The notes below the pieces were generated by a model. That model was not told the origin of the DNA and searched no databases. It was given only the letters and a program-made list of their open reading frames with translations. A stretch of 63,905 bases of DNA, counting the filler, from Dugesia japonica (taxonomy: Eukaryota): assembly GCA_001938525.1 (NCBI GenBank). It is 6 parts of 6 records of this genome, joined end to end, with 100 filler letters (N's around TTAATTAATTAA, not from the genome) between each part and the next. Parts side by side here need not be neighbours in the genome. Positions count along the whole stretch, not along the records: positions 1 to 14,080 come from MQRL01518261.1; 5 more parts are not named here. One strand, 5' to 3'. Positions 4,505-34,651 of the stretch are shown here, one piece after another. The position numbers and the translations under genes were made by a program. Numbering within the stretch: the first letter of the stretch is position 1; the number at the start of each line of letters is the position of its first letter.

Positions 4505-7189
4505 ATAAATAATTATAATTCAGTCAATAACTATAATCTGTTGTTATATAATGTGCTTTAAATAGTGTTGTTATTGAGTCTTGATTATTGAACGTAAAAT
4601 TTTCGATATTGTTTTTCTGTGAAATAAAATTTTGGATGAGTTGTTCAATTTTTAATTCATTGATTATCTAAAAGTTTATTTATGCATTTGTGTGAGAATC
4701 AGTCCAAAGTATTTTATTTAAATCAAAGTTCATTCAAGTGCAGTTTTTTTTTCAAATTCTCGAAAACGAAATAATGATTTCTTAATTGATTTACTTTTCG
4801 TTGGTTTTTATTGTAATTATAATTAAATAATCAATTGTAATGTGACTGTTAGATGAGTTTGAAGTACTCATCGTATCATCAATATCGAAACTCAAGAAAA
4901 TTTATTCACAAAACAAAACTATAACTAATAGTATTTGCTTATTCAAACAAATTAAAATCCCGTGTTTTAATTTATTATTAAAATTTTAATTTATTATTTA
5001 AATCTTTTTAAATCAAAGATTTTAAGAAAAATGATCATCAATCACACAAAAATTTCAACTCGCTTTTCAGAATACACTCCACAAGTGCAATATTTAATTT
5101 TATGAAGTATTTAATTCGAACAAATATGATGTTAAATTGTTTTCTAGAATTTTTTTTAAATTATCAATATTTCATAAAGATTCATTAAAAACTCGAATGT
5201 TACACGACTGTATTTTTGTTTATTTAAATCAAAGTTACAAAATAGACGTTGATAAAAAACAATTATTTATAAATAATATCATTTCATTAAAACAAAAGAT
5301 TTGATCAAATTTTTTTTGTTTTTGATAATATTTCGAATTTTAATTAAGTTAAATTTTAATAATTAAAAACTAAATATTAAAATTTTAATATATTTCTTTT
5401 AATTATAACATGTATAAAACATTAAATATACAGAAAATAATTTAAAAAATTGATCAAAACACAAATTTTCTTAAAAAAAATACAAAAGTTTTAATCGAAA
5501 TAATCTAATTTATTAATATTAATACAATAATTTAAAAATAATAATGATAATAATAATAATTTTATATAAATAGTTTTAAAAATTAAAAAATATAAGATTC
5601 AATAATAATAAAAATTAAATTGAACAAAAAATATATTTTTGATAATTATAAAAGATAATAAATTAAAAAAAAAGATAATTATAATTGAAATAAAATTTTA
5701 AAAATTTCAAATGAATAAAAATTATATTAAAAATATATCAAAATCCAACTAATAATTAAGCATTTAAGAAATTTTTTTCGATGTAATTTAAAATAAAAAT
5801 TTATAACTTAAATAAACCAATAAGATTTTTATAAAATATAAAGAATTTTGTAACAATGTTCTGTTATCGTTTAATCTATCAAAAAGTCATCATATTCCTA
5901 AATAAGACATATGTCGAAAATTTGAATTTCTATAAAAATACATTTTATTTTGATCGAAGCCTTTTCTTTATTTTAATGAAGTATCATTTTTTGTAAAANN
6001 NNNNNNNNNNNNNNNNNNNNNNNNNNNNTTTTTATTTAAATAAATGTTAGAAGAAAAATAAATTGTTATTAATAATGTGTAAGTAAGCCCGCTTCCTAAT
6101 AATAACTATTGCGGCAAATTAAACATTCCTGATAGTTATTTTTAGAGATAATTTTATTATTTTGTTTTAAATTAAAAATATACATTTGAAAAGTATTAGT
6201 AACTTAAATAAAATAGAAATTATTAAAATCAATAAAATGTATTATCATTATAAAAATTTGTACAATTACTTTTACAATTACAGTTTTATCGAAAGTGACA
6301 ATAATAAAAATAACTTATAAAAAATTGTTGGGTTTACATGATTTCAATCTGTGACTAGAAACATTTCATGGAATACCACAAACCTTTAGCATCGGATACT
6401 CCTTGTCCGCACCCGAAGAGATTCTGGTAACTCTCAGACGCACCAAGGTATTGTAACTTCTTTTTTTTCTTCGGGTTCAGCGGATGTGAGTACTAGTCCG
6501 CTATAGATTTTTAATTCTTCGGTAATTATTACCAACCTATATTGGAAGATTTTGACACACTCAGTGAAGATTTTAAGATAACCACAATACTGATTTTACA
6601 CAAGATGAGGAAATCCCACATTTTTTAAGAATGTTAAGTCCTAACTTTAATACATTACGATCATAATAAATTACACAAAATGTTTTCTTCATTTGACCTT
6701 CATAAGCAACTAATCATTTGGTTAGTCTGTTGCCACACTAAAATTTATATCTTTATTACTTATGTTGGGACGAAGCACCCAGAAGAATGAAAGCAAGATG
6801 GAAGGGGGTCATGAATGACCCAATATCAAGATAGTAACGACAGAATAAAACATTTTATGAAAAACAAGTACGAAAATCCGGACAATGATATTAAATGGGA
6901 AACTCAGAAGATCAAATTAAATGAGTGATTAATCATAATAATCGCAAAATTAGGAAAGTTATTAAAGAAAATAAATAAAAGAAGAAGAAATAAATACAAA
7001 AAAATAATAATTAATTTAAACAGAAAAATTAGTTAAAATTGAGACGAAATCTGTTTTATGCAAATAACTCTGGTCAGGAAAGTCGGAGGAAATCCTGGAA
7101 AGAAAATACGGAAAGAAGATAACAAGACGCATTAGAATTGGTAGGAAGCAAAAACTTACCATCATCCAGAAGGGTGCTGCAAGGCTTCC

Positions 7190-7400
7190 AAGATCGGGCC
7201 AATGAGAGACCTAAAAATAAAAATAGAACAAAGACACAATTATCAGGTGTCATGATAAAAATAGCTACCAATTGCTGCACCAAAACTTGTAGAAAATTTT
7301 GGAGAAGTGGCATTGGAGCCAATAGAATCGGAAAAAGGCCGATCTAAAAAATAATCAGCAAATCTAGAACAAGTCTCAGAAATGGTATAAAAAGACCCCT
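7190..7400 (+). promoter_or_regulatory. U3-like Pol II promoter of giant LTR copy 1
   Basis: CCAAT at 7199 and 7319, TATAAAAAG at 7386; TATAAAAAG(g)accc conserved at 24636 and 16305-16313(-). Confidence 0.7.
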
Positions 7401-9041
7401 GACTTTAACGAAAAAAACAACAAAAAAATTATATTTTCATTCCTTGACAGTTGTGTGGAATAATACAAAAAAATTAGATTTGAAAAGTTAATACGCGAAT
7501 TCAATTACTAAAACAAACTAATTTCGTATCAGTGGGAATTAAACCAGAAAAGTCCAAGTAAAAAATTGCACATAAACTTATCCTAAAATAATTATATTAC
7601 TTACAAAGGAGTGAGAAGAAGTCAACATCGACATAAATACACTTTGGTTCAGATCAATTGTTGTTTTCAGTCAAACACCCCGTTGCAGAAAGAAAAGTTG
7701 TGTATAAATAGTAAATATGCGTTATATTTTATATGAGTAATTTAATGAAAACTAATTGTTAATAAATTTTTGTTAACATGTTATTGGTTTATTTTATTAT
7801 TAGTCTAAATAATGATAGTATAAATTCGCAAAATAGCGATTCTGATCTTAAGCTGTTATATAAAATGTATTTTGCCCACAATTAATTCAATTACTCAACT
7901 GGAAAGGCAACCCGGTAAGAAAGTAACAGATGGATGCATACCCACCAACTTATATAACAAATGCTACTGCATATTATCACTTCTCGTCCCACTAGGCATG
8001 CAGCGTAGACAAGTTGATCAGAATAAATTCATGTCTACCCGTCAAGTTGCACAATTAATTTTTTAACCTGGTCATACTGATCGAGATAGGAGACAATTTA
8101 CTAACGGTAATGCGCTGTATAAGGCCTGGATAATAATCGATTAATTCAATTCACTAACCATGCATGTAAAACAATAACACCGCAATCACATACACACAGC
8201 TCGGTTGTAATGCATGCATGCCATGGCAATATTATTCCCAAAATATAGCTAACATAGCAATTCTTAAAACACGTTTCGCAACCTTGAAAGTGTCGCCAAG
8301 GGAAACGTAAATTACCCCAATTCAAATAATACCATTTATTAATATATTTATTAAACATTAAATTGTATTCAGTTATGCTTTCAGGATAGTGAGCCAGCTC
8401 TTAAGTAAATATATCTATAAAACTAAATTAAATTTCAAAGTGTAAAATGAATTATTTCAATTTACAAAGTGGCGAATAAATATTTAAAAAGAAGAAAAAT
8501 TTCTATTAACTGCTATACGGCAAGATGAATAAAATCTTTTACAATTCCCTTCTCAATCGTTTTCTAAAATTGATGGAGAGTATTGTTAGCGAAATGCAAA
8601 AAATTTATTAAAATCAAATCCGGCGTAAATCCAATGATGTATAATATCTTATGGAAAAGTATAACGATGATAAGATAGTTTATGATATTGAATATGGTAT
8701 CCGAAATGTGATGAAAAGCTTTAAGTTGATTTTAATAAAAACAATTTTAACCGTTTTATTAAATTTTAGAACTACAATTGAGAATTTATTGAATTGAATA
8801 GACATAAAATGAAGATTTTCAGGAAAGGTCGCTTTATTACCAGCTAATTTGCAGGGGCACTAATGATTCAAATGGAAAAGAAATACTTGATTTGACAACC
8901 ATATAAATTGTAGCTCCATTTATTTTTTGTTTAAACTTCTCTCATCAGTTTTTTGAAGCAGATACTGGAGTTAGACTGGGGGGATTGTTATAATTTACTA
9001 TGCTAATTAATGGTTAAATAAAAGATAATTTTTGTTGTCAG

Positions 9042-9187
9042 TTAAGAAAACCGGGCAGTGTGACCGACCCTTTCTCGAAAATACTAAAACTAATCCGGCT
9101 TGAAAGGCGTAAATCTCGGAAATGTTCCCCTTGATGTCTTCTGTAGATCTAGATGCAGGACAAGCATCACCTAAAACAGGAGTGTAA
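9042..9187 (+). pseudogene. Cassette ORF A, copy 1 (internal deletion)
   Basis: Acceptor gtcag at 9037-9041; VTDPFSKILKLIRLERRKSRK / MFPLMSSVDLD aligns with copy 2 ORF A ends; AATAAA at 9213. Confidence 0.7.
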
Positions 9188-9321
9188 TCTGTTAATTGCC
9201 TTTCTCGTATAAAATAAATGTACAAGTCGATTGACTCTAATTGTTAATTCTTTGGATTATTATTAATTAATTTAAAGAAAGTTATATATTATAATTGAAA
9301 CCACCTATCTGTTAATTATAG

Positions 9322-9701
9322 ACATAAAGTCAATTTGGGAAAGGGTCGTCGATAGGAGGACTCATCGAAAAATCTTTCGACGACACCACAATCCTCATAA
9401 TCGAGACGCGGGCATCTTGGCCGACCGATCCAATCTACCACCTGTAGAATCAATAGTGTCCCGTATAAGAGATTTTGGGGAACGCCAGCAGTATCAAAAC
9501 TGGACGGGACCTGATCGCACCCTTGCGACGTCTTTTCACTACCGACCTTCTGTTCCAGCTCCTGCTCCCGCAGTGCAGGCTTTCATCTCGAATCTTCTCT
9601 AGGAAGTCAGGGAGCCGAATGGTGTAACCGATGTTGAAAACACCGCCCCAACCCCGACAATAGTAATGATCCACACTAATCCTTTTGGTTGTCTGATATA
9701 A
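9322..9701 (+). pseudogene. Cassette ORF B, copy 1
   Basis: ttatag|AC ATA AAG..; IKSIWERVVDRRTHRKIFRRHHNPHNRDAGILADRSN homologous to B at 27145, 32907, 38949; TAG 9600 at a Trp position; AATAAA at 9701. Confidence 0.72.
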
Positions 9702-9947
9702 ATAAATAAGTGTTTTAGTTGCGGCTACTCTTAATTTTTTTTGGTTTTGTAAAATGAAATTCTGCTAATAAGGGAATGACATTGGATTTAATAACTTTCT
9801 TAAAAAAATAAAATAATAGTAATACCGAGTGATGTTATTAAACTGGATTAATCTTATTATTAATTTGGTGGACCAGACTACTTAGCTTTTCTGTTAGAAA
9901 TTAAACATCTGGTAAAGTGTACCATCTTTAAAAGGTTTATATTTTAG

Positions 9948-10306
9948 TGCATTCGTCATTAAACAAATCACAGGCTCCACGCAAAAAACTACGAGAGACA
10001 AGCGAAGACATTGATCTGACGTGGGACCTTTATAGATTAACTAAAAAGCGTTGGGAGGCCGATGTCGCTAATGCGGAGGCTAAGGTTAAGCGCTATAAAA
10101 CGAAATGCTTATCCTTCAAAGCCGAGGCTGAAGCCTCATATCAACAGGAGAGAGCCTGGAAGGACCAGTTAGACTCTCTGACCGAAATTATCCGGTCCTG
10201 CCACGACCGAGAGAATAAACTGGTAAACGAAATCCTCAAGCTAAAGAAACTCGTACTCCTGTCCCCCCTCATGGTAGATAAAGGCGGGCAGGTTCCTCGA
10301 TCTTAG
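9948..10306 (+). CDS. Cassette ORF C, copy 1 (intact ~119 aa, probable coiled coil, unknown function)
   Basis: attttag|TG CAT TCG..; open to TAG; homologs at 27703 and 33510; AATAAA at 10326. Confidence 0.78.
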
Positions 10307-10440
10307 TTATTTTGTGACTCTAGTTAATAAAAATTTCTGTTGTCTTCGTTGTTCTCTTATTTTCAACCTAATTATGTCATCATCTATATTCAATGCTATT
10401 AATGTGTTTTGAATACTCATGAACTAATTCTTTTATTTAG

Positions 10441-10823
10441 TGCTACGAATTAGTTTTCCCAACAGCGTCCGAAGATGCCATCGCATTATGCGACGCCTTC
10501 TTATTGAGAGGCACTTAAAACGTAAGGCAGATCGGGCCATCCTCAAACATTTAGCCCAACGTGACCAACTAATAAAAAAGTTGGATCTGATAATTAGAAA
10601 ACAGAATGATTTAGCGTCCCAAACCAAGGCCCTCGAGACAGAAAATAAACAACTACTGTTGAGAAAGATAGAATTCCTTAAACAGTATATAGCCGACCTC
10701 TCCCGCCAGATAAACAATCCAACGTTAATACAATAGGACGATGGTGAAGATATCGCCACCTTCAACTTTTCTATAACCGACCCGACCCAGTGGTTGGATC
10801 CTTGGGCGCTAGATTTGATTTAA
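10441..10823 (+). pseudogene. Cassette ORF D, copy 1 (basic N-terminus, coiled coil, acidic QWLDP tail; one W->stop)
   Basis: tatttag|TG CTA CGA..; TAG 10734 aligns with TGG in copy 4; read-through gives DDGEDIATFNFSITDPTQWLDPWALDLI*; AATAAA ~10842. Confidence 0.75.
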
Positions 10824-11399
10824 TTTCTTTTTTGTTTATAAAATAAATGATATAGAATTAATATTGTATTTTCCTTCTTCACTAAAAGATGTAGGGAAAA
10901 GTGAAGCCAAATACAAAGGTTTATGGGTGTGCACCTCCCATTAAGAGAGAGATCAACCGCCATAAACTGAAGACCTACCCTAGGGTCGGTAAGGTAAATT
11001 TTTGAAAGGGTTCCCCTGAGGGCTGTTTTTCCCCAGCCACGTTATTTTTTAACTCAACTCAGGAGGGACCTCAACACTTATATTCTTTACATATTTAAAC
11101 AGTTATTAATTTTAATCTTACAACTTGATTTTCTGTAATCTACACATATTTATGCAATTAAAGACGAGTTACATTTCTGATTTTTTTCGACGAGATTGAG
11201 TACTAATGATATGTTTGAATTCATTTAAATTAAATTTTCAACACAGTTGTCTTTTCATTCTAAGCCAATATTCGTTTTCGAAATTCAAACTTTTCGATTA
11301 CAGTGATTAGTCTCTTACGTCAAGGTTATAACAATGATCCATCAGTTACAAACATAAATTATTCGAAACTGAATATCATCGAAATAACAATTAAAGAAA

Positions 11400-12790
11400 A
11401 CTACGCATGAAAATCAAGGATCATAGAACAGTTGTGTAGCTGACGAAGCAACAAGAAGTTAGAATAAACCGATAAAATAAACGATACTTTTGAGGGTTTA
11501 ATGAAAGCTCTATTGACTGCATCAATATTATGTTTTTCTGAAATAAAAAAAGAATTTATATTAGACACAGATGTCAGGTTTGATACGATTGGATCAGTAT
11601 TGTCGCTGAGAGGTAAAGAAGAAAGCTAAAAGGTTGCGGCTTATGGATTACACTCAATCAAAGGTTATGAAAAAGGATACTGCATCACACGAAAAGATTT
11701 ATTAGCTACTTATTATTTCTGCATGCATTTCAAACATTACTATACGATATAAGATTCACTCTTAGGAAAGATTATAAGGCTCTTACCTTTAGAATGACAA
11801 CGAATAAATCATTTACGGCACAATTCCAGACATGGATTAACTAGCTGAGTAGTCTAGACATGATATCAGAATGTAGAAAAGGAATTCAACATGGTAATAC
11901 AGATATGTTATTTAGACCAAGATGCGAAGTATGTGTACATTGTAAAATGTCACATAAAGATTCCAGGAAAGGGAAGATTAAAACAATAGTACTGATCACA
12001 ATAGAAAAATATAAAGATGGCCAATTAAACATTTCTGAAGAAAAAGATTTAATCAAGAAAATTGATTTTCCGGATTTCGAAATACATGAAACAATGGAAG
12101 AAATACACAAATAATTATGTCATGCAAGAGTTGAAAAGGTGTACGAATATATGATAGACAAATACATTGCGAAGAATTTGTGGAGCCAAATAGTTCATAG
12201 GATAGTTCATAGTTGTGAAATTTGTCAGAAGGCTAATGTAGTGACGACAGCAATTAAAGAGAAGACAAAAAGATTAGAAGCTACCAATTTGTTTGAAGTC
12301 ATATTTATAGATGTATGTTAGCTAATGTAGGAAACAAGTGGACAAAAATACAAACTTAGAACATAAGACCAGTTCGGGACAATTCGAGATTTAATAAATG
12401 CAACACTTTAGGAATGAAAGAAAACAGATTTGGCAGACATTTTACCAGAAATTGATATTACTTTAAACGCAACAAAGCAGAACAGAAGTAGAAAGAGTCC
12501 AGCTGAGATCGCATCTGGAAAGAAAATTATCAAGAAAAGTTGTACGAGTCAGAATTTTCAGATAGAATTAAAGAAAACATTTCAAAAGTAACTAGAGAAC
12601 TCAAAGTAGGAGATTATGTGCTCATCAAGGTAGAAACAAGAAAAAAAGTCAAGACAGAATTCAGGGTCCTTATCGAATAATTGAGAAAATTCACGAAAGA
12701 CGGTATGTGATACAAGGAGAAAATGGACAGCGATTAGAAAAAAATGTAGAAAAACTTAGAAAGTTTCTTAAGAAGGAGAATATAAGGAAA
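11400..12790 (+). mobile_element. Decayed Ty3/Gypsy pol (RNase H-integrase) with PPT
   Basis: FILDTD.., AQFQTWIN, RKGIQHGNTD, CEICQK, FEVIFID, GPYRI; PPT aagaaggaga ~12770; same family as 37440-38632(-). Confidence 0.88.
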
Positions 12791-13029
12791 TAATTAATAA
12801 TTTCAGCCAATAGAAAACGATTAAAAATAATTATCAATATATTAATTATTTCTATGTACCCTTTATTTATTTTAATCAGTTATCTCAGTTAAAAATGAAA
12901 TAAAAATATGTCAAAAATAGTTCTGATTTTCAAAATAAATAATAATTTGAAGATTTATCTAACAATACTCATTCTTAGAGTCTATCAAGCTAAAATATGC
13001 TGCTCCATTTAGTGTATATAACATTATTT

Positions 13030-14180: not shown

Positions 14181-16889
14181 AAAAAAAAATAGCAACACAC
14201 ATTCCCTTAAATCTGTTGATGACTGTTGTTTCTCGGTGCATGATGGTTGATATTGCTTATGAGTAATCGGCAGGTGTGTCTATTAGAACTATAGAGGCAA
14301 TATCAAAATTTTACCAGTATGAATAAACTGACAATTACTGGGAAGGGAAGGACATGCCAATCTGCACGATTCACAATGCTCGAATTATTTCAGGAATTCA
14401 TTACCCAAGCTTACATCTTTTCCTACATTGCTCTGATGGATTAAGGNNNNNNNNNNNNNNNNNNNNNNNNNNNNNNNNNNNNNNNNNNNNNNNNNNAAAA
14501 ATTGGAATTCTCATATTACTAATAAATGTAGATAAGAATAGCTCGCGAGACGATTATTTGATTTTTATTCAAAAAAAAAAATTATCCAAAGCGCTTGAGC
14601 GAAAAATTCAAGAGTATGTTAGAGTCATCTCAATGAACGAATGCCGCTGTTTTATCATTCCTGGGCACTGACTTGGTCTCATGATCCATTATCTTGGTTA
14701 TAAAATACTCGATGCATGATGGAAATATAATGATGATCGGCNTAATTCCGGAGGTGTGGTGATGTGATTTAATCTACTGTTTATCTACTCATTTTCTATA
14801 CGAATCGAAACGGAATTTAACCACTGGTCTCCTTATTTTGGATGTTGGATATAATTAACAATATTACATCAAAATGACCCATGAATGTTCATTTGACTGT
14901 TTTAAATTTATATTAGATGGATTAATCAAATATGAGGAGTTGGTGATTAGATTATGTTGGTTGTTATTTGAGCAGTTACTGAGGGAGAGAGTTTAATTGA
15001 ATACATTTATATATTTTTCTCTTTCTTAATCAATGATAACATGTAAGTAAATTTATTATAATATAACATATATATTCAAAGTGATAAAAATAAAATAATA
15101 GCTAATTATCAATTCACTTTAACAATAACATGATAACAAACATAACAACAAAAATTACTATTATATCTAGCTGTTGGATACGGAGTAAACTGGTTTGCTC
15201 TGAACGGGTACGATAACAACAATGGTCGGTCCTGTTTGTGGAAGTGATAATTTCGTAGTTCGCTCCTTGGCACTTGACTATATTCTGAAATAGTTCTAAC
15301 AATTAATTTTTCCGTTAGATTATTATACCACTTTGCAACTTAGATAGTTAATTAAACGACGATTCACGTCAATTGAGCTCCTGATNNNNNNNNNNNNNNN
15401 NNNNNNNNNNNNNNNNNNNNNNNNNNNNNNNNNNNATTTGACTGTTTTAAATTTGCATTAGATGGATTAATCAAATATGAGAAGTTAGTGATTAGATTAT
15501 GTTGGTTGTTATTTAAGCAGTTACTGAGGGCGAGGGTTTAATTGAATACATTTATATATTTTTCTTTTTCTTAATCAATGATAACATGTAAGTAAATTTA
15601 TTATAATATAACATATATATTCAAAGTGGTAAAAATAAAATAATAGCTAATTATCAATTCACTTTAACAATAACATGATAACAACATAAACAACAAAAAT
15701 TACTATTATATCTAGCTGTTGGATACGGAGTAAACTGGTTTGCTCTGAACGGGTACGATAGCAACAATGGTCGGTCCTGCTTGTGGAAGTGATAGTTCCG
15801 TAGTTCGCTCCTTGGCACTTGACTATATTTTTGCAACTTAGATAGTTAATTAAACGACGATTCACGTCAATTGAGTTCCTGATAGTTTTCTCGTTGATTG
15901 GTGCTACTAAAGGTAGATAACTTAGAGTTGATTAGGCGTAGCTCTACTGATAGAGTAAAATATTGGTTAATGAATGAATTTTTTTGTCTAAAACCGGGGT
16001 CCTTTTTATACGATTTTCTGGACACCCCTACTGGTTTTATATTTGCCGATATTTTTAGAACGGCTTCTTTTCACGCTCATTGGTGCCAGCGCAGAGTTTT
16101 AGAATTTTTTCGTANNNNNNNNNNNNNNNNNNNNNNNNNNNNNNNNNNNNNNNNNNNNNNNNNNTTCACGTCAATTGAGCTCCTGATAGTTTTCTCGTTG
16201 ATTGGTGCTACTAAAGGTAGATAACTTATAGTTGATTAGGCGTAGCTCTACTGATAGAGTAAGATATTGGTTAATGAATGAATATTTTGTCTAAAACCGG
16301 GGTCCTTTTTATATGATTTTCTGGACACCCCTACTGGTTTTAGATTTGCCGATATTTTTAGAACGGCTTCTTTTCACTCTCATTGGTGCCAGCGCAGAGT
16401 TTTAGAATTTTTTCGTAGATTTTGGTGTCGTGATTGGCAACTATTTTTAGAGCGTCAGGTGAGGTTTTATGTCTTTGTTCTAATTCTTTTTCCTGGCCGC
16501 TCATTGGCCGGATTTTTGAATCCTTGCCATACCCCTCTGGAAGGTGGTAGGGTTTTTCTTTTTTCGGTCTGAATTGCACCGTTTAGTTTTCTTCTGGATT
16601 TTTCTTATTAGGGTCCTTTCTGGTGACCAGGGCCCGAGATATCCGCAGAAAACAGATTTTTATCTAATTTTCGTGAATTTTGTTTTTAAAATTAATTAAT
16701 TTTCCGTCTTAATTAATTATTTCTTTATATTATTTTTCGTATTATTTCTTTTTATTTAATAATTTTTCTTTGATTGCTGGCCCGATTGTTGGTTTATGTT
16801 TCATGTATCTTTTTCCTTTTCTCTTTATTTCTTTTCCCTGGTGGCTTTCCTTTTTATTTCTTTTCCTTTAAGGGTGTTTCACCCCAACA
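14181..16889 (-). mobile_element. Giant LTR-like unit, copy 3 (5' part, cut at scaffold end, with internal duplications)
   Basis: Minus strand starts TGTTGGGGTGAAACACCC at 16889 (identical to 23987); promoter region homologous to 7020-7400 and 24280-24660. Confidence 0.82.
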
Positions 16890-17100
16890 TATTTACAATT
16901 TATTCAATTTTTTTGAAAGTTTATTTAATTACTTTGATAAATTATTTTTCATAATGATTTATTTAATTTGCATATTTACATTTACAAAATCCTTGTTCTC
17001 TTTCATACTTAAAAACAACTAAGTGTTTAGAATATTTATTAAATAAAAATTATAACGTTAATTCATATTATTCATCCAACGTTATTTCAAATTTACACAA

Positions 17101-19800
17101 CTCTCCCATCTTTCAAAACGTTTTCCATCTTTTTAGCCATTCTATTCCTTTGGTTTTCAAACTATTTGGAAGTTTGATTTTTTCTTGATATGCTGTTACA
17201 AATCTCACTATATGTTATGGCCTTTCATATAGCAAACCGTTTTTTTATTGTATGCTTCCACTTGGACTAATAACCACTCTCCCTCTTTAAAGTATCTTTG
17301 TCCTTGCTTATCTTTGTCGAAATTTTCCGTTTTCTGTGCAACCTTCTCCAAATTATGTCGTACTATCTCTTCTTTGTCTGCCCTTCCTCTTAAGAGCGCT
17401 TCCTCTTTGTAAGAAAATTTATCTTTCGACCAAATACAATTTCGAAAGGAGGGAATTTTGTTGATTCTTGTATTGTAGCATAAATACTAAATTCTACTCT
17501 CGATAATAATGTCTCCCGATCTTTCTCATTATATTTCTCTTTTATTGATATCGCAATCATGTACCTCGCTGTTTGGATCATCCATTCTTCCAAACCATTC
17601 GACTGGTGTTAATACGGGGAGCTAAATTCGAAATTTTTCTAGTTTCTTTGTCATCACTTGACTTCCAAACACTTTACTTCTGCCCGTCAGAATGAATTTT
17701 GGTTTACCAAAAAGTTAAAACCATTTGTTCAAAATTATCATAAAAATTGTCTCTTTATCCATTTTTAAAACTGAAGATAAGTTGACTAGTTTGCTAAAAC
17801 GATCAATAATTACCACCATATATATATGTCTTTCCAGACTTCCTCGGTTCCATTTAAGCTACATCCACTACAATTTGTTCTAAAAGAATTTTGNTTCTTT
17901 TGTACTACTTTCCTTTTGGCATACATCTCACATTTATCTATACTTTTATTAATTGTTTCACGCATCCCTGGTCAGAAATAATCATCTTGTACGTATGAAA
18001 ATAACTTTTCCCCCCCTACATGACATAAATTTTCATAAATTTTCTTTATCACTTTATCAACTATGTTTGTCGAAAGCACTAACAAGAATTTATTTCCACT
18101 TTCCACAACTAACAAATCATCCACTATTTTCAATTCGTGCTTCAGTTTAATCCAGTAACTTCTTTGATCACTCTTTTTAGTCTCTAAACCTTCTTATTGC
18201 AACATTGCTACACAATTTTGCATTTTTTAATCTTTTGTCTGAGCCTGTCAAATCATTGTAATTATATCGGTCTCATATTAATTCCATTGATATGTTTCAC
18301 TCTCGCCTTTTCTCCTTTTGCGTTTATGTGTTTAATGCTACATAGTAAACATAAACTCTCCTTTAGCCTCGACAACCCATCCGCATTGTTTTATTTTTCG
18401 CCTTTTCTATACTTGAGTTCAAAAATATACTCTCCCAAAATTTGCCATCTACGTCTGAAATTGTGGACTGATTGGTTTCTTTATGTTGTTTTCAGAAATA
18501 CCAACGCTTTGTGGTCTGTTCTTACTAGAAATCTCTTTCCATACAGATATTGTTTGAATTGTTGTATAAATTCGTGTTTAGTTCTTTCCTTGTCATACAA
18601 TACCCTTTTTCATGAGCTGTCAAATGTCAAGATTCAAATCTATTACCACTTCCTTTTCCTCTTCGCATTGACTAAGGACTGCACCGATAGCCCCAAAACT
18701 AGCGTCAGTGTCTAAAATGAACATCCAATTCTCCTCGAGATATTCTATCACTGGAGCATTAGATAATTTGTCTTGTAGCGCATTAAAACGGTTCTGACAT
18801 GCTTCTGTCCAAACTAATGGTTTGGTGCAACCTAAAGTTGTTCCATATAACGGAGCTACTATCTTTGCAAAATCTTTTATGAAACTCCTGTAGCAGTTTG
18901 CTAGTCCCCAAAATGAACGAAGTTTTGAAGAACCTTCTGAAACTATAGAATTTTTTATCTCCTGAATCTTAACTTCATTAATGTATATACTATTTGCACT
19001 GATTGTATGTCCCAAGAATAAGACTTCTTTCTGATAAAGTTTATTCTTAATCCCGAATCTTTGATCCTGTAAAAGACTGTCTCTAGTATTTTATTGTGAT
19101 CCTCAAAATGTTTTTCCGTAAACCAGAATATTGTCCAGTTATACAATAACTCTTTAAAACTAACTCCTCAAATTATTCGTGCATTAACTTTTGAAAATTT
19201 GGCCGGTGCTGTAGCTAATCCAACAGGCATGCTGTTAAATCTGAATTGACCTTCCTTTGCACTAAAAGCACTGACATCTCTTGACTTTTCTGCTAACTCC
19301 ACTTGGTAATAAGCTTGGCCTAGATCAACCAATGAAAATATTTTCAAGCCAGATAAACAATCTAATAATAACTGAATGTCTGGCATTAAAAAAACATTTT
19401 TTCTATCCTCAAACTCACTTGTCTGTAATCCACGCACATTCTTATCAAGTCGTCCTTTTTACCCACAATCACTAATGGAAAATTCCAAGGACTATTACAC
19501 TTGCTGATTACACCAATCTTTGTTAATTGATTTACCATATCTTTAATTTTCTTTTCTAAATGGATTGGCTGTCTTCTAGGGTGATGTATTATAAAGATCT
19601 CCTTTAACTCTTATTACTTTTTTCGAATGTCCAATATCAAACTTTGAAGTCATGATTATCTTACCAAAATTCTGGAGCAACTGAATCATTTTTCTGTTAT
19701 CAATTCCTTTAATCAATTTCAACGCGTTATTTTTTCTATCTTCATCAGAATGTGTTATTTTCAGACTCTCATTTTTGATGTTATTTACTTCTGTTAATTT
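17101..19800 (-). mobile_element. Decayed Ty3/Gypsy pol (RT, RNase H, integrase) with PPT
   Basis: LVDLGQAYYQVEL, QFRFNSMPVGLATAPAKF, LRSFWGLANCYRSFIKDFA, FILDTDASFGAIGAVLSQ, PPFEIVFGR; RT-RH-IN order; PPT gatgggagag at 17101-17110. Confidence 0.93.
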
Positions 19801-21520: not shown

Positions 21521-22357
21521 TTAAAAATCCAAATCATCATCCGGATCCTCATCATCTTCATCGTCATATTCATCGGGACAATAACTGATACTAATTCCTT
21601 CACCACCTGAAAGAGCAACCTGTTGTTCTTGCTCACTTTTTAAATACGGTAAAACCAATTTATTTTTAGCCTCTAATTCATTTGGTTTCAAATCGATATT
21701 GAAAGTGGTTATTGGCTGTATTGCAGAAGGTTTAGTGTCGGTTTCACAAGATGTGATATCATTATTATGCTTAATAAACTCGTTAATTGTTAAAAATTTA
21801 TAATTTGCATCTAAAACTACATCAATTGATCCTATTTCGATTTTTGAAGTCAACTGTTTATTAATAAAAAAATCACAAATAAATTTTATATGAACATTAG
21901 CTTGACATTCTGAATGTTTGATATTCAATACCGAAGTTGCATACCGATTAAATGTCGAAAATTCATATTCTGTTATACAATCTTCGTGACACAAAATGAT
22001 CATTGTTGAAATATGTGCAAATTGTGAGATTTTTTTTAATTTCTGTACAATCAATTGCACTGGAAATTTCAACAAAATATGATTGATATCATAAATAAAT
22101 ATATTTGTTTTCTTTTCAGAATCGAAATCTTTTGATATTAAATTATCAAAACTCAGTATTTCCAAATTATGAATATTATTTATGTTTTGATTTTCAGAAA
22201 CGCAAAAATTTTCCCGATGAGGAGCTTTTAAATAATTAGAAACTATTGAGTTAAAAAGATGTATTCCTGAATGTTTGTAGTTATCAAATAGAAATACTAA
22301 TTTTGAGGATTCTAAGCCTTGCAACAGATTTTTGATGGAATTAATATTGAGTTTCAT
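21521..22357 (-). CDS. ELP5: Elongator complex protein 5 (Iki1 family), single exon
   Basis: 278-aa intact ORF ending TTFNIDLKPNELEAKNKLVLPY..ISYCPDEYDDEDDEDPDDDLDF, the characteristic ELP5/Iki1 C-terminus. Confidence 0.88.
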   Translation of the reverse strand: MKLNINSIKNLLQGLESSKLVFLFDNYKHSGIHLFNSIVSNYLKAPHRENFCVSENQNINNIHNLEILSFDNLISKDFDSEKKTNIFIYDINHILLKFPVQLIVQKLKKISQFAHISTMIILCHEDCITEYEFSTFNRYATSVLNIKHSECQANVHIKFICDFFINKQLTSKIEIGSIDVVLDANYKFLTINEFIKHNNDITSCETDTKPSAIQPITTFNIDLKPNELEAKNKLVLPYLKSEQEQQVALSGGEGISISYCPDEYDDEDDEDPDDDLDF

Positions 22358-23184
22358 TATTTCAAATAATCTGAATGATTATTTAAACAACTTAGTTTAG
22401 GTTAATATTAAAATTAATTAAAAGAATTACTTAAACATACCTAAGAAAATACTACAACTGAATATTTTATAAAAAAATTTATCAGATCTATTGAGTTTTT
22501 AAGAATGTATTGTTTTTCATTATGAGAAAGTTATCAAAAATTCACAATTTATGAAAGTATTTAATATCATTTACAATTAAATTTAAATACCATTACACTT
22601 TTTTAACAACAAATAATTTTTATTTCAAAAAATTATTTAACAAGCAAAGGTCAAAGTTGCTGTTTTTTNNNNNNNNNNNNNNNNNNNNNNNNNNNNNNNN
22701 NNNNNNNNNNNNTTAATTAATTAANNNNNNNNNNNNNNNNNNNNNNNNNNNNNNNNNNNNNNNNNNNNAACAATCATGACCCGATTTAATCATTATTATT
22801 AACATAATCATTAAAATTATTTGCATAAAATCAGATCATGTGTTGATTCGAAAATGATTTCTTAACAAAATTTATATTAGCATAACAATGAAATCATGTA
22901 CTTTGAAAATTATTTCTTTANNNNNNNNNNNNNNNNNNNNNNNNNNNNNNNNNNNNNNNAAATTAAAGTATTATCACATGTATAAATAATAAATAATATA
23001 TTATTAATTAATCAAAATAAATTTTGTAAACATGATAAAAAAATATTTTATTATAACAAATAAAGTTATTACACAACATATCATTGATAGTTATACATTA
23101 TTTGCTTGATATCCCATAAAGGGATCATAACGTGGTTATTATTCATTTGTTGAAAACCATTTTAAGCAATCTTGATACTATACT

Positions 23185-23493
23185 TTATTGATTTTGGCAT
23201 CTTTTCCATTTTCGACCAATAACATCCAAAATTGTTATTTTATAACCTGGCAAGTAAAGATGATTTTGTATCGAATCAATAGATTTTTCCTCAAAATCTA
23301 AATTGACATTTAACTGTTTCATTGCTTGTCGCATTTTATCCAAATCACATTTACTCATATTTTTTATTGTATAAAAATGTTGTGATTTTTTAATTTCTAC
23401 ACTGTCTTCAATATTTACAATAATCGGTTCATCCAACAACTGGAAACGATAAGTTTTATATTTCCGTATAGTAGAATTATGATTTTGTTCCAT
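23185..23493 (-). CDS. Hypothetical intronless protein downstream of the TBP-like gene
   Basis: 102-aa ORF ~90 bp after the TBP-like stop on the same strand; no recognisable motif. Confidence 0.4.
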   Translation of the reverse strand: MEQNHNSTIRKYKTYRFQLLDEPIIVNIEDSVEIKKSQHFYTIKNMSKCDLDKMRQAMKQLNVNLDFEEKSIDSIQNHLYLPGYKITILDVIGRKWKRCQNQ

Positions 23494-23581
23494 TGGATGT
23501 TGTTGTTGTTGAAGTTTTAAGACTATAATAATAATATAAAAAGAAATTTATACAGATATATACATGATATTTTCTTATTAA

Positions 23582-23986
23582 TTAATTTGATTGATTTAAA
23601 CAATTCAAAACATATTTTGTAATTTCATTAATTATTTCTTGATAATCCAGTGATTTTAGACCGAGTATCACAACGTTTAAATTTGAAAAAACATTAACAC
23701 ATAATGGTTTGTATTTACTGAGGCGTAATGCGGTAAATATATTCTGGTTCGAAAAAGCCTCCTAGTAAATTGTTCAATTTATTTAAATTCACAGATTGAT
23801 CAAGATGATATTTTACAGTAATAGATTGAATGCAGTCTATCTGGATTTTGAGAAATGGATTTTCACAATTAGTTTGCTCTAAACCAATTGGTTTCTTGCA
23901 ACCCATGATTCTACATTTACCTGATTCAAATATAATTACTGAAAAGTCTTCCATTCTTAGGACATATTGTCGAGGTTTCTTCCAAG
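23582..23986 (-). pseudogene. Divergent TATA-binding-protein-like gene, 1-nt frameshift, 5' end cut by giant LTR copy 2
   Basis: Repeat 1 KPRQYVLRMEDFSVIIFESGKCRIMGCK; removing one base after FFEPE gives IFTALRLSKYKPLCVNVFSNLNVVILGLKSLDYQEIINEITKYVL, matching TBP repeat 2 (YEPELFPGL..LLIFVSGKVVLTGAK). Confidence 0.75.
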
Positions 23987-26739: not shown

Positions 26740-26922
26740 ATGGCCAATCCTTTTACTAGAATATTAAAGCTAATTCGGGTTGAAAGACACAAATCTCGGA
26801 AAAGGTAGTTGCTATCTCACATTCTATCTCGCGGTGTGATCGAGCATCCCGACGAAACTGATCTCCAGTGTTTCGTCGAAATGTTCCCGATCCAGAATCG
26901 AGTAGATTTGGACGAGGAATGA
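26740..26922 (+). pseudogene. Cassette ORF A, copy 2
   Basis: MANPFTRILKLIRVERHKSRKR*LLSHILSRGVIEHPDETDLQCFVEMFPIQNRVDLDEE*; acceptor cattag at 26717-26722. Confidence 0.75.
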
Positions 26923-27126
26923 CAACGCGGAATAGGAATGAATTCGGGCGACATAGTTGCAGGCATAAATGTTTGAATTTTCACCGGTCCTTAATTACAA
27001 TTTTGCATGTGGTTTTACCGAGTAACAAATCTTGCAAAATAAATCGAATTGTTGTTATGGCTTGTGTTTAGTTATATAAATTAAGGTCTATTTGCCACAC
27101 TTCTGTTTTGCTACTCAAATAAAAAC

Positions 27127-27555
27127 CTGGAATACAAATTAGAAGTGAGCCTTGACACCCGTTCAGGTCGAACCGTGTTCCGGCGGTATCAAAATCCTTA
27201 TGATCGCCACGCCGGTGTGTTAATATACCGTTCCAATGTTCCTGTTGAACAATGCACAGCAGATCGGCAATGGGATGCAACTGAGAGGGCAGCCTATTAC
27301 AGTTGGTGTGGCCCGATGAGAGATAGAGTCGCCTTCTCACCGGCACCTCTTTCTTTTGAGCGATCCGCAGAGGTGCCACAAGTAGAACGAGTATGGCATG
27401 ATGGCCCATCGTTTATCGGTATCACCACGAATCGCTTACCCTCAACCTCGCAACTGTCTTCCTTAGTGCAAAATTATCTATGGGATGCCCGTAATGGTAT
27501 GGTCAGCAGTAATGATGAAAACTCTGGTGAAGAAGTCTCCGAGATATCGGTGTGA
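27127..27555 (+). pseudogene. Cassette ORF B, copy 2 (acceptor and start deleted, body open)
   Basis: SLDTRSGRTVFRRYQNPYDRHAG...LWDARNG; close to 38949 copy; AATAAA at 27569. Confidence 0.78.
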
Positions 27556-27702
27556 CCTATCTTATAGAAATAAAGTTTTGGCTAGGAATTTGTTCTCTCT
27601 GTCTTTTATTGTTTGATTGGTTAAAACCCTATTCAACTTTTGCTTTTTTGACTATAAACAGTTTTAATGAAATTCCGTAATTTTATTATGTTTATGTTAT
27701 AG

Positions 27703-27862
27703 TGCATTCCTCGCTAAACCGTCCATCGGCCTCTAATAAACAGATAAGAGAATCCAGTGAAGACACCGAAATGTCCTGGGAGTTATATCGACTAGTGAAA
27801 CATCGATTTGAGGCTGAGATAGCCACTGCCAACGCAAAAGTGAAGCGTTATGAGAATAAATG
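27703..27862 (+). pseudogene. Cassette ORF C, copy 2 (truncated)
   Basis: ttatag|TG CAT TCC..; HSSLNRPSASNKQIRESSEDTEMSWELYRL; homology stops after KC. Confidence 0.75.
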
Positions 27863-31945: not shown

Positions 31946-32593
31946 CTAAATATTATAATCACGTTAGGACAATCTAACTTGATTTTAATAATTTATGACA
32001 TTTATTTTTAGATATTTTCAATACACCATTAAATTACTTTCAAAATATCGAACTTGTTTNNNNNNNNNNNNNNNNNNNNNNNNNNNNNNNNNNNNNNNNN
32101 NNNTTAATTAATTAANNNNNNNNNNNNNNNNNNNNNNNNNNNNNNNNNNNNNNNNNNNNATTTTTACTAATTATTATGGTTATTAATAACATTTTTATTA
32201 TTATTAATATTATTCTTGATACTATCAATGAATATGATTCTTATTGATTTCCTCGTTATTCTCGTTATTATTTTAGCATTTTTATGGCATCGATCTCATC
32301 ATCTTTCACAAATAAAATCTATTCGTGACCTGCTCAGTGTTACAGTGATGAATTCCATTAAATTATAGTATCTGTACTAACATTATTATTACTTATATAA
32401 GTACGTGAGTTATGATCCAAACAAATGTTAAAATCGTAGTCTCCTCTTGGGTACCAATACTGGAATGCTATTATCATTTGATTTTTATTCCTTCTTTTCC
32501 TGCATTCGAGTAGTTGACTCCACGCCTAGTGTAAATTCCCTTTTACTATATGCCTGAATTTCATTAAATTTTCTTTGCTGATTCAGATTTTCC

Positions 32594-32785
32594 ATGTCCA
32601 ACGTTCTAATAAGAACCCTCGAACTAATCCAACAAGAACGAGAACGATCACGGAGGAAACAAATAATAGGACACATCTTGGCTCCTTCGCTAATTTTACA
32701 CCCCAATGAGACCGACATCATCTGTTTTGCAGAAAATTTCCCTCCATATAAATTCAACCAAGTCAATCTAGATCAAGGAAGCTGA
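32594..32785 (+). CDS. Cassette ORF A, copy 4 (intact 63 aa)
   Basis: MSNVLIRTLELIQQERERSRRKQ..HPNETDIICFAENFP; HPxETD..CF.E.FP shared with copies 2 and 5. Confidence 0.75.
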   Translation: MSNVLIRTLELIQQERERSRRKQIIGHILAPSLILHPNETDIICFAENFPPYKFNQVNLDQGS

Positions 32786-32906
32786 TATTTTCTTCAGTTT
32801 TATATCAATTATTAAATGCGTTTCTATAATTATCTCGCTTTTTCATATTTATTGAGTTATTTATCACTATTTAATCTAAATAAAAGTTTACTATAATTTT
32901 ACAGAG

Positions 32907-33320
32907 ATGGAATATAAGTGGGAAGTCGTCCTCGATCGGAGAACTGGCCGCACAATATTCAAACGCTATAAGAACCCCTACAATAGAGATTCGGGTGTTT
33001 TCGCAGAAGGTTCTAACTTGCCACATGAAGAAGCTGAGGAAAAAACACAGTGAAACGCCACCATGCGCCACGCCTTCTATGACTGCAAGGGGCATGATAG
33101 GGCACGAGCTGTTTATCATGCAAGTACGTCTACAAACACATATGCCAATGGTGAATCACATACTATCCGGACGTGACAGGAAGGCCCATCGGTTGTAGGT
33201 CTCACTACCAATCAGTTGGCTTCTTTCTTTAACCTAAACGCGTTTGTGCAGTATTCGTAACACAGATGAGGGTGGCAATAATGAAAATTCTGGTGAAGCG
33301 ATCGATAACGACTCAACTTG
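32907..33320 (+). pseudogene. Cassette ORF B, copy 4
   Basis: ttttacag|AG ATG GAA TAT AAG TGG; MEYKWEVVLDRRTGRTIFKRYKNPYNRDSG..; two TGA at conserved Trp. Confidence 0.75.
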
Positions 33321-33509
33321 ATTATTTAGCTTGTTGTCTTTGTGTAATTAGTAATAACAATTTTACCGTTGTAATTCATTAATTGATTCATATCTACCTA
33401 TTCACTTACTTTCTTCCTAATTATCATAATAGGGATTAATCGTTTCAAATAATAAGTTTTACTGATCTTTGATTTTCTGTAATTGATAATGAAAATTTTT
33501 TGTTTATAG

Positions 33510-33868
33510 TGCATTCGTCATTAAACCGATCAACAGCACCCACTAAAAAAGTGCGAGAAACGAGCGAAGACTCCGAAAGGTCTTGGGAACTTTATCGTTT
33601 GGCGAACAATAGATGGGAGGCTGATGTGCCTATCGCAAACCCTAAGGTGAAACACTATAAAGCTAAGTGCATTGCCTTTCAAAAAGAAACAGAGGCCTTC
33701 CACGCTCAGGAGTGACTCTGGAAGACCCAGTTAGAGTCCTTCGCAGAGATCATCCCGTCCCTCCATGACCGTGAAAATAAGCTGGTCTCAGATATTTTAA
33801 CTCTAAAGAAGTCCATGCCACTCGAGCTGCTGATGGTTGATAAGAATACGCAAATCTCACGGCCATAA
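33510..33868 (+). pseudogene. Cassette ORF C, copy 4 (one internal TGA)
   Basis: ttatag|TG CAT TCG; same length as and colinear with 9948-10306, through HDRENKLV..LMVDK. Confidence 0.78.
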
Positions 33869-34016
33869 TCTTGGTGATTGTTTTCACCTGTAAATATAAG
33901 TTTCCTTGATTGTGAATTGATTTGTTTTCAATTATCTATTTGATAACTATTCTTATTATTCGATTGAATTTAATTCACTCAATCTATTGTTAATCTAATA
34001 ATTATTATCTGTTTAG

Positions 34017-34377
34017 TGCCAAGTATTCTCTTACCCACCAATCTCCGGAGGTGCCACCGTCTCATTCAAAAATTGTTACTGGAATGCCACATTAAGCGTC
34101 AAAATGAAAGAGCCTTGTTACGACACCTGACACAACGCAACCGTTTAATTAAAAAGCTCGACTACATAGTAAAAAACAGAGCGAGTTGGCGTAACAGACT
34201 AAACAGGTTCTCCAGCACAAAATCGACTTCTTGCAACGCTACATAGCAGATCTATCTAGTCAATTAGGAAACGAGACACGGGTTCGTTGGGATGACAACG
34301 ATGATGATGCCGCGCTAACTTTTTTACCTGAAGAGCCTACCCAGTAGTTAGACCCGAGTGCTCTCGATGATATGTAA
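34017..34377 (+). pseudogene. Cassette ORF D, copy 4 (frameshifted)
   Basis: gtttag|TG CCA AGT; RRCHRLIQKLLLECHIKRQNERALLRHLTQRNRLIKKLD; ends PTQ*LDPSALDDM*; AATAAA at 34388. Confidence 0.75.
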
Positions 34378-34651
34378 TTTCAAACCGAATAAAATTTAGT
34401 TTTAATAGTTTATTAATTGATTTTAGCTAATTTTAAACAAAGGAAAATATTGAACCTGAACCAAAGGTACACGTGTGTGCACCTCAAATGAGTGTTGGAG
34501 GTCAACCACTCTTAACTTAAAATCTAAATAGGGACTTTAGATTAAATTCTTGAACGGGTCCCCCGAGGCCTGTTTTTTTCCTAGCCATGTTTTTCTACCA
34601 CAAACTCAGGTGGAACCCCAACAAGACTAAATAATCTCAGTTTTCAATTTT

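Follow-up and report, generated by a model that had tools for sequence, protein, structure and literature searches.

A probable solo LTR of a high-copy planarian retrotransposon family that may join one non-coding leader to at least four alternative last exons

In a 63,905-nucleotide stretch of Dugesia japonica DNA (the window), we find a 4,314-bp repeat that is, judging from its sequence, most likely the solo LTR of a high-copy retrotransposon family and that carries a row of separately ending ORFs (A to D) downstream of a promoter-like block. Our preferred explanation, with a probability of roughly 0.6, is that these ORFs lie in alternative last exons that are cis-spliced singly to one shared non-coding leader, all inside this probable solo LTR. 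What is directly visible comprises the ends of the element, its target-site duplication (TSD), the promoter motifs repeated between copies, the selection on A to D, and the layout of AGs and AATAAAs. The original prediction had confined the unit to 9000..10850, which is too narrow, since the unit spans 6763-11076, and had overlooked the enclosing frame, namely that the modules sit within a probable LTR. The element and its copies in the window are the following.

6763..11076, + strand: copy 1 in full, a probable solo LTR (4,314 bp, TGTTG...CAACA), with ends set by homology to the other copies
6759..6762, + strand: left target-site duplication, CTTA
11077..11080, + strand: right target-site duplication, CTTA
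10914..11076, + strand: conserved 3' end block, U5-like, 72% identical to 34462-34623, with the deepest contig cover
23987..27866, + strand: copy 2, with 5' end, promoter (TATA 24636), leader candidate, A (acceptor 26721, ATG 26740), B, and the first half of C (acceptor 27701), then broken off
32585..34623, + strand: copy 3 (copy 4 of the original prediction), with an open A (ATG 32594, 63 aa), AATAAA 32879, B (acceptor 32903, ATG 32907), C (33508), D (34015), AATAAA 34388, and the 3' end
38641..39396, + strand: copy 4, with the 3' part of A, B (ATG 38949), and AATAAA 39391
16250..16889, - strand: fifth copy, with 5' end and promoter only and different sequence after

Copy 1 is the only complete copy in the window and the one from which the TSD evidence comes. 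Its flanking CTTA tetranucleotides are identical (chance of matching 4-mers, 0.007) and fall within the 4 to 6 bp of an LTR-element TSD, and its termini are of the TG...CA type found at LTR ends (TGTTG at 6763, CAACA at 11076). Four contigs from two runs terminate at this same CAACA. The terminal inverted repeats amount to 9 exact bases (start of copy 2 versus end of copy 3) and about 17 imperfect ones, and motifs in the style of a U3 promoter, CCAAT boxes and a TATA box, occur as sequence motifs in 3/3 copies. The LTR assignment rests on the ends, the TSD, and the promoter, because a primer-binding site (PBS), polypurine tract (PPT), or gag-pol is attached to none of the copies in the window; no parent gag-pol was found. 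That the family is a large one is indicated by 4,901 contigs of a single run mapping to 8200-11150 at 80-100% identity. Five scans of viral contigs and two of metagenome contigs (IMG/VR, JGI) recovered no locus. Once the TSD and the 3' end were known, the idea that the 5' block is a short Gypsy LTR in its own right, its PBS lying at 7523-7545, was dropped. A connection of the cassette with the fragments of Gypsy pol at 11450-12970, 17100-19700, and 37265-38640 was likewise rejected, their orientations being different and their own PPT-like tracts lying elsewhere. The fifth copy is inserted ~200 bp inside the apparent LTR of another Gypsy. Rfam returned only three sub-threshold matches across 7500-41000, and the window contains no tRNA genes. 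Searches with an Elp5-like ORF, aimed at the host, recovered no match.

The 5' portion of the element contains the regulatory features that the modules would share.

6941..7430, + strand: conserved non-coding promoter block, U3-like, with CCAAT boxes at 7199, 7268, and 7319
7386..7394, + strand: TATA box TATAAAAAG, identical in 3/3 copies
7415..7710, + strand: putative non-coding leader exon, ATG-free, last base A, its start placed ~30 nt past the TATA box
7711..7716, + strand: candidate splice donor A|GTAAAT, aligning with the copy-2 donor A|GTAATT at 24995/24996

The promoter block is 75% identical to 24238-24680 and 71% identical to 16560-16333, is devoid of codon periodicity, and shows an excess of CCAAT in all three copies (p=0.0015 in copy 1; 0.045 and 0.0035 in the others). 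Conserved RNA structure in this block is unsupported (covariation term +5.45), and folding of the 3' block gave z values of -1.8 to -0.2. In copy 1, the first ATG comes 331 nt after the TATA box, an ATG-free run as long as which occurred in 0/2000 shuffles; the corresponding stretch in copy 2 is 396 nt (p=0.0005), and in both it is seen on the + strand only. It is shorter in the fifth copy (p=0.09). Beyond the leader, at least 18 ATGs fall within the first 900 nt past the TATA box. A candidate A|GTAA donor, chosen after the fact, lies 7 and 37 nt ahead of the first ATG in the two copies; alternative candidate donors are present at 7557 and 7610, and a motif shared ahead of the chosen one is non-significant (29/300 shuffles).

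Downstream of this region, copy 1 carries the following modules.

9040..9218, + strand: module A, with acceptor 9040, a remnant of ORF A (without ATG, with an internal deletion), and AATAAA 9213; dN/dS 0.19-0.20
9320..9706, + strand: module B, with acceptor 9320, ORF B (without ATG, stop at 9600-9602 in copy 1), and AATAAA 9701
9946..10331, + strand: module C, with acceptor AG|TG 9946, an open coiled-coil-like ORF to 10306, and AATAAA 10326; dN/dS 0.13
10439..10847, + strand: module D, with acceptor AG|TG 10439, an early stop at 10734-10736 (homologous end 10821-10823), and AATAAA 10842
8573..9022, + strand: possible further unit, badly decayed and a weak lead, ending at AATAAA 9017

Copy 1 is a decayed copy in which only C is open throughout and A changes frame near 9120 in addition to its internal deletion. 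Comparison of the copies gave dN/dS of 0.11-0.20 in 4/13 exon pairs; dS is saturated in the remaining 9/13, with pN of 0.20-0.42, and non-coding controls gave ratios of 0.44-0.94. On this sequence comparison, ORFs A to D are under purifying selection between copies, and the separately terminating ORFs of the original prediction are borne out, each exon being a separately ending, selected ORF. A further ORF considered in the 3' block is not supported (ratios 0.44-0.94). In the possible further unit, the context of AATAAA 9017 is conserved with that of 26692, and protein similarity is non-significant (61/500 shuffles).

A to D match no known family within the Pfam, PDB, and protein searches run. 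Pfam yielded no match at the curated cut-off for any of them and only weak coiled-coil matches, and word-indexed protein searches with C and with a B profile recovered nothing. A PDB sequence search with B gave a best E of 0.49 (adenovirus fibre), which we take as chance, and an Atlas search with B gave 0.90 at low recognition, a lead only. The predicted fold of B has a pLDDT of 45 (best Z 3.6), and that of A, with a pLDDT of 73, recovered no viral match under E 5. Database relatives that begin with Met were found for B (E 1e-20) and A (E 1e-8). Because A has a basic helix, and C and D combine a basic part with a coiled coil, we tentatively suggest that the proteins might be nuclear regulators of the element, with the odds somewhat against it.

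The sites bounding the modules are where the original prediction had placed them: all four AGs (9040, 9320, 9946, and 10439) and the AATAAAs at 9017, 9213, 9701, 10326, 10842, 26692, 32879, and 34388 are present. Its description of the acceptors as pyrimidine rich holds to the extent that they have 8-12 pyrimidines in 15 nt, but individually they are weak, with 10% of the 2,626 AGs in the window being YAGs with at least 10 pyrimidines; they carry weight because they are conserved across copies. AATAAA occurs nine times on the + strand of 9000-10860 against 2.7 in dinucleotide shuffles (1/500 shuffles reach 9) and once on the - strand. A downstream stretch with T+G >= 0.6 follows 5/10 of the exon-end signals versus 12% of the 219 AATAAAs of the window. 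Counter-points to this layout are copy 2, which has no AG near the start of B, and copy 3, which, as the original prediction had recorded, lacks AATAAA after B and C.

Outside copy 1, A and B have their own ATG, with an AG just ahead of it in most copies, while C and D have no start codon of their own, and their exons begin with AG|TG in 5/5 copies. This invariance contrasts with fourfold sites, which agree at 14/48, and with comparable YAGs, only 6% of which are followed by TG. The AG|TG starts need an upstream exon. The reading frame of A relative to its AG is different in three copies, as expected with a non-coding leader; that the leader has to be non-coding had escaped the original prediction. 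Under the preferred reading, the promoter within the repeat would start transcription near 7415, and the leader, some 300 nt long, would end near 7710 at the A|GT donor. Depending on which acceptor and which poly(A) site are used, four mRNAs would then arise, each cut at its own signal; A and B would begin at their own ATG, and the ATG of C and D would form from the last A of the leader and the TG of the exon. The full-length element RNA would read past all of the signals into PBS-gag-pol.

Alternative terminal exons fed from one promoter, as originally predicted, are supported at the level of DNA by the promoter, the leader, the selected ORFs, and AG|TG, but no junctions or poly(A) sites were seen in RNA. 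Neither four raw RNA runs (145 reads, none 99% alike) nor four contig runs contained spliced reads at these AGs or poly(A) ends near the AATAAAs; the leader is barely covered by these data, the candidate donor being only 11 nt inside the stretch used for raw reads and outside that used for contigs. No loose read ends lie at the acceptors among those listed (18 of 35 raw; 24 of 1,212 contig). RNA reads related to C were found in the raw runs, and in runs that are presumed to be RNA, some contigs continue unspliced across acceptors and poly(A) signals.

These read-through contigs, together with the want of a junction and the weakness of the individual acceptors, could also be read to mean that the same element expresses its ORFs from unspliced RNAs with alternative 3' ends, with C and D initiated at GTG (the invariant AGTG can be read as containing this codon) or by re-initiation and the AGs being by-products of AT-rich spacers. 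The MDG1 sORFs would be the parallel, the full-length RNA of MDG1 being without splicing (PMC11952523). However, the 18 or more ATGs downstream of the leader mean that scanning could not reach A to D on such an RNA, and A and B mostly have an AG directly ahead of their ATG. GTG starts are, moreover, poor in animals. We regard this alternative as unlikely.

A shade less likely still is a non-autonomous DNA transposon (Ginger-like) or other mobile unit, rather than an LTR, bearing the same cassette. TGTTG ends and a 4-bp TSD would suit Ginger, whose ends are TGTNR and whose TSD is 4 bp (PMC2836005), and no end in the window adjoins an internal retroelement region. Against this, the inverted repeats of Ginger are about 40-270 bp long (PMC2836005), far beyond those found here, no transposase remnant was seen in copy 1, and the layout, in which the promoter comes first, matches an LTR.

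The original prediction had also offered an operon resolved by spliced-leader (SL) trans-splicing, which we consider improbable. Planarians do trans-splice, and SL1-type operons can have a poly(A) site directly next to an acceptor (PMC12582326). The stop-to-acceptor gaps of copy 1 (about 130-250 nt) are within the 300-nt operon threshold, and A and B, having their own ATG, could accept an SL, so that for them this route is possible. It fails for C and D if judged by the SLs of parasitic flatworms, which end in ATG (PMC12582326): the frame set by such an SL closes after four codons in C (3/3 copies) and is the non-conserved frame in D (2/2 copies). Nor does it account for the invariant TG or for the leader being free of ATG. 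A coding exon that all modules share, that ends in phase 1, and that gives all proteins a common N-terminus, an arrangement like that of mod(mdg4)/lola, would suit the conserved frame being in the same phase at 8/9 of the acceptors first examined but is very improbable, in that the phase of A differs among three copies, in B of copy 4 an in-frame stop directly precedes the ATG when reading starts at the nearer AG, the leader zone is without ATG and no conserved upstream coding exon was found, and a third-position G would not remain fixed at saturated dS.

The usual view of LTRs is that they are control regions without coding content, and repeat masking conceals what they contain. If cis-splicing to a non-coding leader is correct, a high-copy LTR encodes four or more selected protein families unlike any known kind, expressed without the rest of the element, and solo LTRs are not inert. 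It would also pose a problem of 3'-end control, in that the full-length RNA has to read through some five poly(A) signals while still in the 5' LTR. For replication, a U5 that is about 3.6 kb long and holds five poly(A) signals is awkward. We see a little less than an even chance that, in one family of animal retroelements, the LTR part behind the promoter has become an adenovirus-like unit with a non-coding leader, at least four alternative last exons, each with its own poly(A) site, and two splice-built starts, that each solo LTR left in the genome is a complete multi-gene unit for novel regulatory proteins, and that the GLT elements of planarians, which are PIWI-repressed and tissue-specific, may be alike.

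In the adenovirus major late unit, a single leader serves many acceptors and there are several poly(A) sites, but the unit is not part of a retroelement. MMTV sag and HIV nef are each a single ORF within an LTR (U3), upstream of the promoter, that uses the LTR poly(A) site, whereas the ORFs described here are downstream of the promoter. Judging by their listings, none of the papers returned by a literature search that excluded most subscription journals and Repbase Reports describes ORF arrays inside LTRs. Burro/GYPSM1 are giant Gypsy-like planarian elements (>30 kb in total, up to 25 kb internal) that, compared by description only, are similar in being very large, high-copy LTR elements that have long LTRs and accessory ORFs and reside in AT-rich genomes of flatworms; ORFs inside the LTR are unmentioned in section 7 of PMC6431247. 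GLT2 of Schmidtea mediterranea is PIWI-repressed and neuron-enriched (PMC8532177). On the reverse strand of its probe (first 400 of 485 letters, by eye), an AT-rich spacer is followed by AG|TG and an open, helical-looking frame, as in C and D; the likeness to C, also judged by eye, is weak, and the available part of PMC8532177 gives neither its class nor its ORFs. One GLT2 primer is absent from the window at up to 3 mismatches, and three window motifs are absent from the text of Table S1 in the first 400 letters of its cells (PMC8532177).

The MDG1 group of Drosophila (412, Mdg1, Stalker, Blood) shares with the present element small accessory ORFs under selection and a dedicated poly(A) site in an LTR retrotransposon: sORF1 and sORF2 lie upstream of gag, and an alternative poly(A) site after sORF1 gives a short transcript (PMC11952523). 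No sequence match of MDG1 to the cassette was found. As described there, the group has two unspliced ORFs between LTR and gag with one extra poly(A) site, whereas here the terminal repeat itself contains at least four ORFs, all of them preceded by an acceptor and most of them followed by a signal of their own. Errantivirus env (gypsy, springer subclade) acquires its start codon by splicing to a 5' leader, with a donor AT joined to an exon G; this concerns a single env gene, whose end lies in the 3' LTR (PMC2585583; bioRxiv 10.1101/2023.08.03.551782). Here the start would be assembled as A|TG, and in two ORFs that are not env and have poly(A) signals internal to the element.

The DNA of the window is AT-rich and animal-like, with TTA runs, and holds pieces of host genes, among them a Ctr copper transporter exon and an Elp5/Iki1-like ORF that is intronless (279 aa; region, 21521 to 22360, minus strand; Pfam PF10483, E = 1.6 × 10−5) and without a close relative in the protein collection searched. 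It also holds decayed Gypsy pol remnants from two families, a PPT-like tract following the integrase in each, and a degenerate tandem repeat whose unit measures ~300 to 330 bp (60400 to 61880). Within this DNA, sequence comparison recovered four copies of a cassette of four small ORFs (A to D), each ORF forming, in copy 1, a module with an acceptor AG and an AATAAA, inside what is a probable solo LTR.

Cassette copies and Gypsy fragments in the window
9.0-11.1 kb, plus strand: cassette of copy 1 (element 6763-11076)
26.7-27.9 kb, plus strand: cassette of copy 2 (23987-27866)
32.6-34.6 kb, plus strand: cassette of copy 3 (32585-34623)
38.6-39.4 kb, plus strand: cassette of copy 4 (38641-39396)
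11450-12970, plus strand: decayed Gypsy RT/RNase H/integrase fragment
37265-38640, minus strand: decayed Gypsy RT/RNase H/integrase fragment
17100-19700, minus strand: decayed Gypsy RT/RNase H/integrase fragment

The element around copy 1 spans 4,314 bp and has CTTA on either flank (chance, 0.007). Its repeat at 6996 to 7430 recurs at 24238 to 24680, upstream of copy 2 with matching orientation, and as an inverted repeat copy at 16.3 to 16.8 kb, all three copies of the 5' block starting with TGTTGGG; a second block (10914 to 11076), with a terminal CAACA, recurs at 34462 to 34623. Contigs of other family members end at the identical CAACA (one in sequencing run X9 and three in X10). The family is large, since run X3, whose kind is not on record, gave 4,901 contigs on 8200 to 11150 spread over all identity bands (depth being no copy number). 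The window has no copy joined to PBS-gag-pol, and scans of viral and metagenome contigs found no locus. TGT ends and a 4-bp TSD are shared with Ginger transposons, but the TIRs of these measure 40 to 270 bp (PMC2836005). The 5' end of copy 2 interrupts a tandem row of a TBP-like ORF (Pfam PF00352, E = 1.5 × 10−4, below the cutoff) and a 120-aa unknown ORF (23185 to 24005, minus strand), which perhaps belongs to a different mobile element with several ORFs.

The 5' block is ~75% conserved among copies, above synonymous sites, with neither a codon pattern nor RNA covariation among the copies in the window, and carries CCAAT boxes and TATAAAAAG in all three. It reads as a U3 promoter directed into the cassette, which would place A to D in R/U5. 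Downstream of the TATA box, the ATG-free stretch is 331 nt long in copy 1 (0 of 2,000 shuffles) and 396 nt long in copy 2 (P = 0.0005); it occurs on the plus strand only. A candidate donor, A|GTAA, lies shortly before the first ATG in both (7710 and 24995), and the two align with each other; between TATA and module A there are 5 and 6 such donors, and a motif common to both copies upstream of the donors is not significant alone (29/300). The fifth copy (16250 to 16889, minus strand) is ATG free for 183 nt after TATA (P = 0.09). Its sequence past the TATA box (14890 to 16250, minus strand) differs and includes a 90-codon frame with a hydrophobic stretch at its end (15659 to 15931); this copy, which is duplicated around assembly gaps, perhaps represents a subfamily with another cassette.

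The positions of AGs and AATAAAs in the original prediction were all confirmed. The plus strand of 9000 to 10860 has nine AATAAAs versus 2.7 expected (at least nine in 1 of 500 shuffles), and the minus strand has one. The acceptors are of modest strength (8 to 12 pyrimidines per 15 nt; 10% of 2,626 AGs reach at least 10). A further pyrimidine-rich AG, two bases, an ATG, and a decayed frame at 7997 to 8260 (plus strand) are laid out as in module B, and no homologue was found in copy 2. Copy 1 shows decay: neither A nor B keeps an ATG, A also carries an internal deletion, and stops interrupt B at 9602 and D at 10736; C is open. At the break of C in copy 2 starts a frame of 106 codons (27860 to 28180, plus strand), whose end is acidic and rich in proline and which has no match in Pfam.

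By sequence comparison, A to D are real genes: dN/dS is 0.11 to 0.20 in 4 of the 13 exon pairs compared, versus 0.44 to 0.94 in six control frames of the noncoding end blocks; in the other nine, synonymous sites are saturated (pN, 0.20 to 0.42). Among 1.84 billion proteins, profile searching recovered two relatives, of B (94 aa) and A (60 aa), both unnamed singletons with a Met start on short contigs; Pfam, PDB, Atlas, and fold comparison gave no reliable match. ORF A is predicted to form a long basic helix, behind which lies a conserved HPxExD...F.E.FP segment (model pLDDT, 73), and C and D have basic N termini and coiled-coil-like bodies, with an acidic, aromatic tail in D. These layouts may point to nuclear regulators.

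We favor, with a probability of about 0.6, the reading that the modules are alternative last exons with their own poly(A) signals, cis-spliced to one noncoding leader. ORF A in copies 2 and 3 and B in copies 3 and 4 have their own ATG shortly after the acceptor, and the phase of A differs from copy to copy among three, which makes a coding leader unlikely. In C and D, no Met is conserved: three of five copies lack one within the first 60 codons, and the remaining two have it at differing positions. Both ORFs start AG|TG in 5/5 copies; as background, 14 of 48 fourfold sites agree, and of 696 comparable YAGs, 44 have TG next. Joined to the TG of the exon, a leader whose last base is A would yield an ATG in the conserved frame of C and D.

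The RNA evidence is a weak test of the spliced reading and in part speaks against it; it also bears on the alternative that A to D are read from unspliced RNAs with alternative 3' ends. Contigs from three runs guessed to be RNA numbered 646, 523, and 580 on 8200 to 11150, a stretch that starts downstream of the candidate donor. The predicted junctions at the acceptors did not appear among the 15 of 26 contig joints listed, and several contigs run unspliced across acceptors and poly(A) signals, as would be expected of full-length element RNA, of DNA carry-over, or under this alternative. In raw RNA (four runs from three studies, ~6 to 25% of each sampled), 145 reads fell on 7700 to 11300; copy 1 was not seen expressed, because none was 99% alike, and sequences related to C and to the 3' block were present among the reads. 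No joints were listed for these reads, the candidate donor lying only 11 nt inside the stretch. Among the loose ends listed (18 of 35 for raw reads and 24 of 1,212 for contigs), none lies at an acceptor. The ATG-free leader and AG|TG starts partly support the shared promoter and alternative exons originally proposed. The spliced-leader operon offered beside them fails for C and D, as a leader ending in ATG, as in parasitic flatworms (PMC12582326), would close the frame of C after 4 codons and misframe D in the copies checked.

A literature search for ORF arrays inside LTRs listed nothing comparable with this cassette. Three described systems come closest: the MDG1-group sORFs, errantivirus env splicing, and the giant planarian Burro elements, for which the review section consulted names no ORFs in the LTR (PMC6431247). 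The MDG1-group sORFs are accessory ORFs before gag, unspliced and with one alternative poly(A) site (PMC11952523). The published GLT2 probe (PMC8532177) has by eye the same spacer-AG|TG-open-frame layout, but one of the GLT2 primers lacks a match in the window; on its reverse strand, a GLT probe (Table S1 of the same source) has CCAAT- and TATA-like motifs and then a short open frame, likewise by eye. Going by these motifs, GLT elements may be promoter-plus-small-ORF repeats as well. For a start codon made by splicing, the precedent is Gypsy env, where it is formed as AT|G (PMC2585583; bioRxiv 10.1101/2023.08.03.551782).
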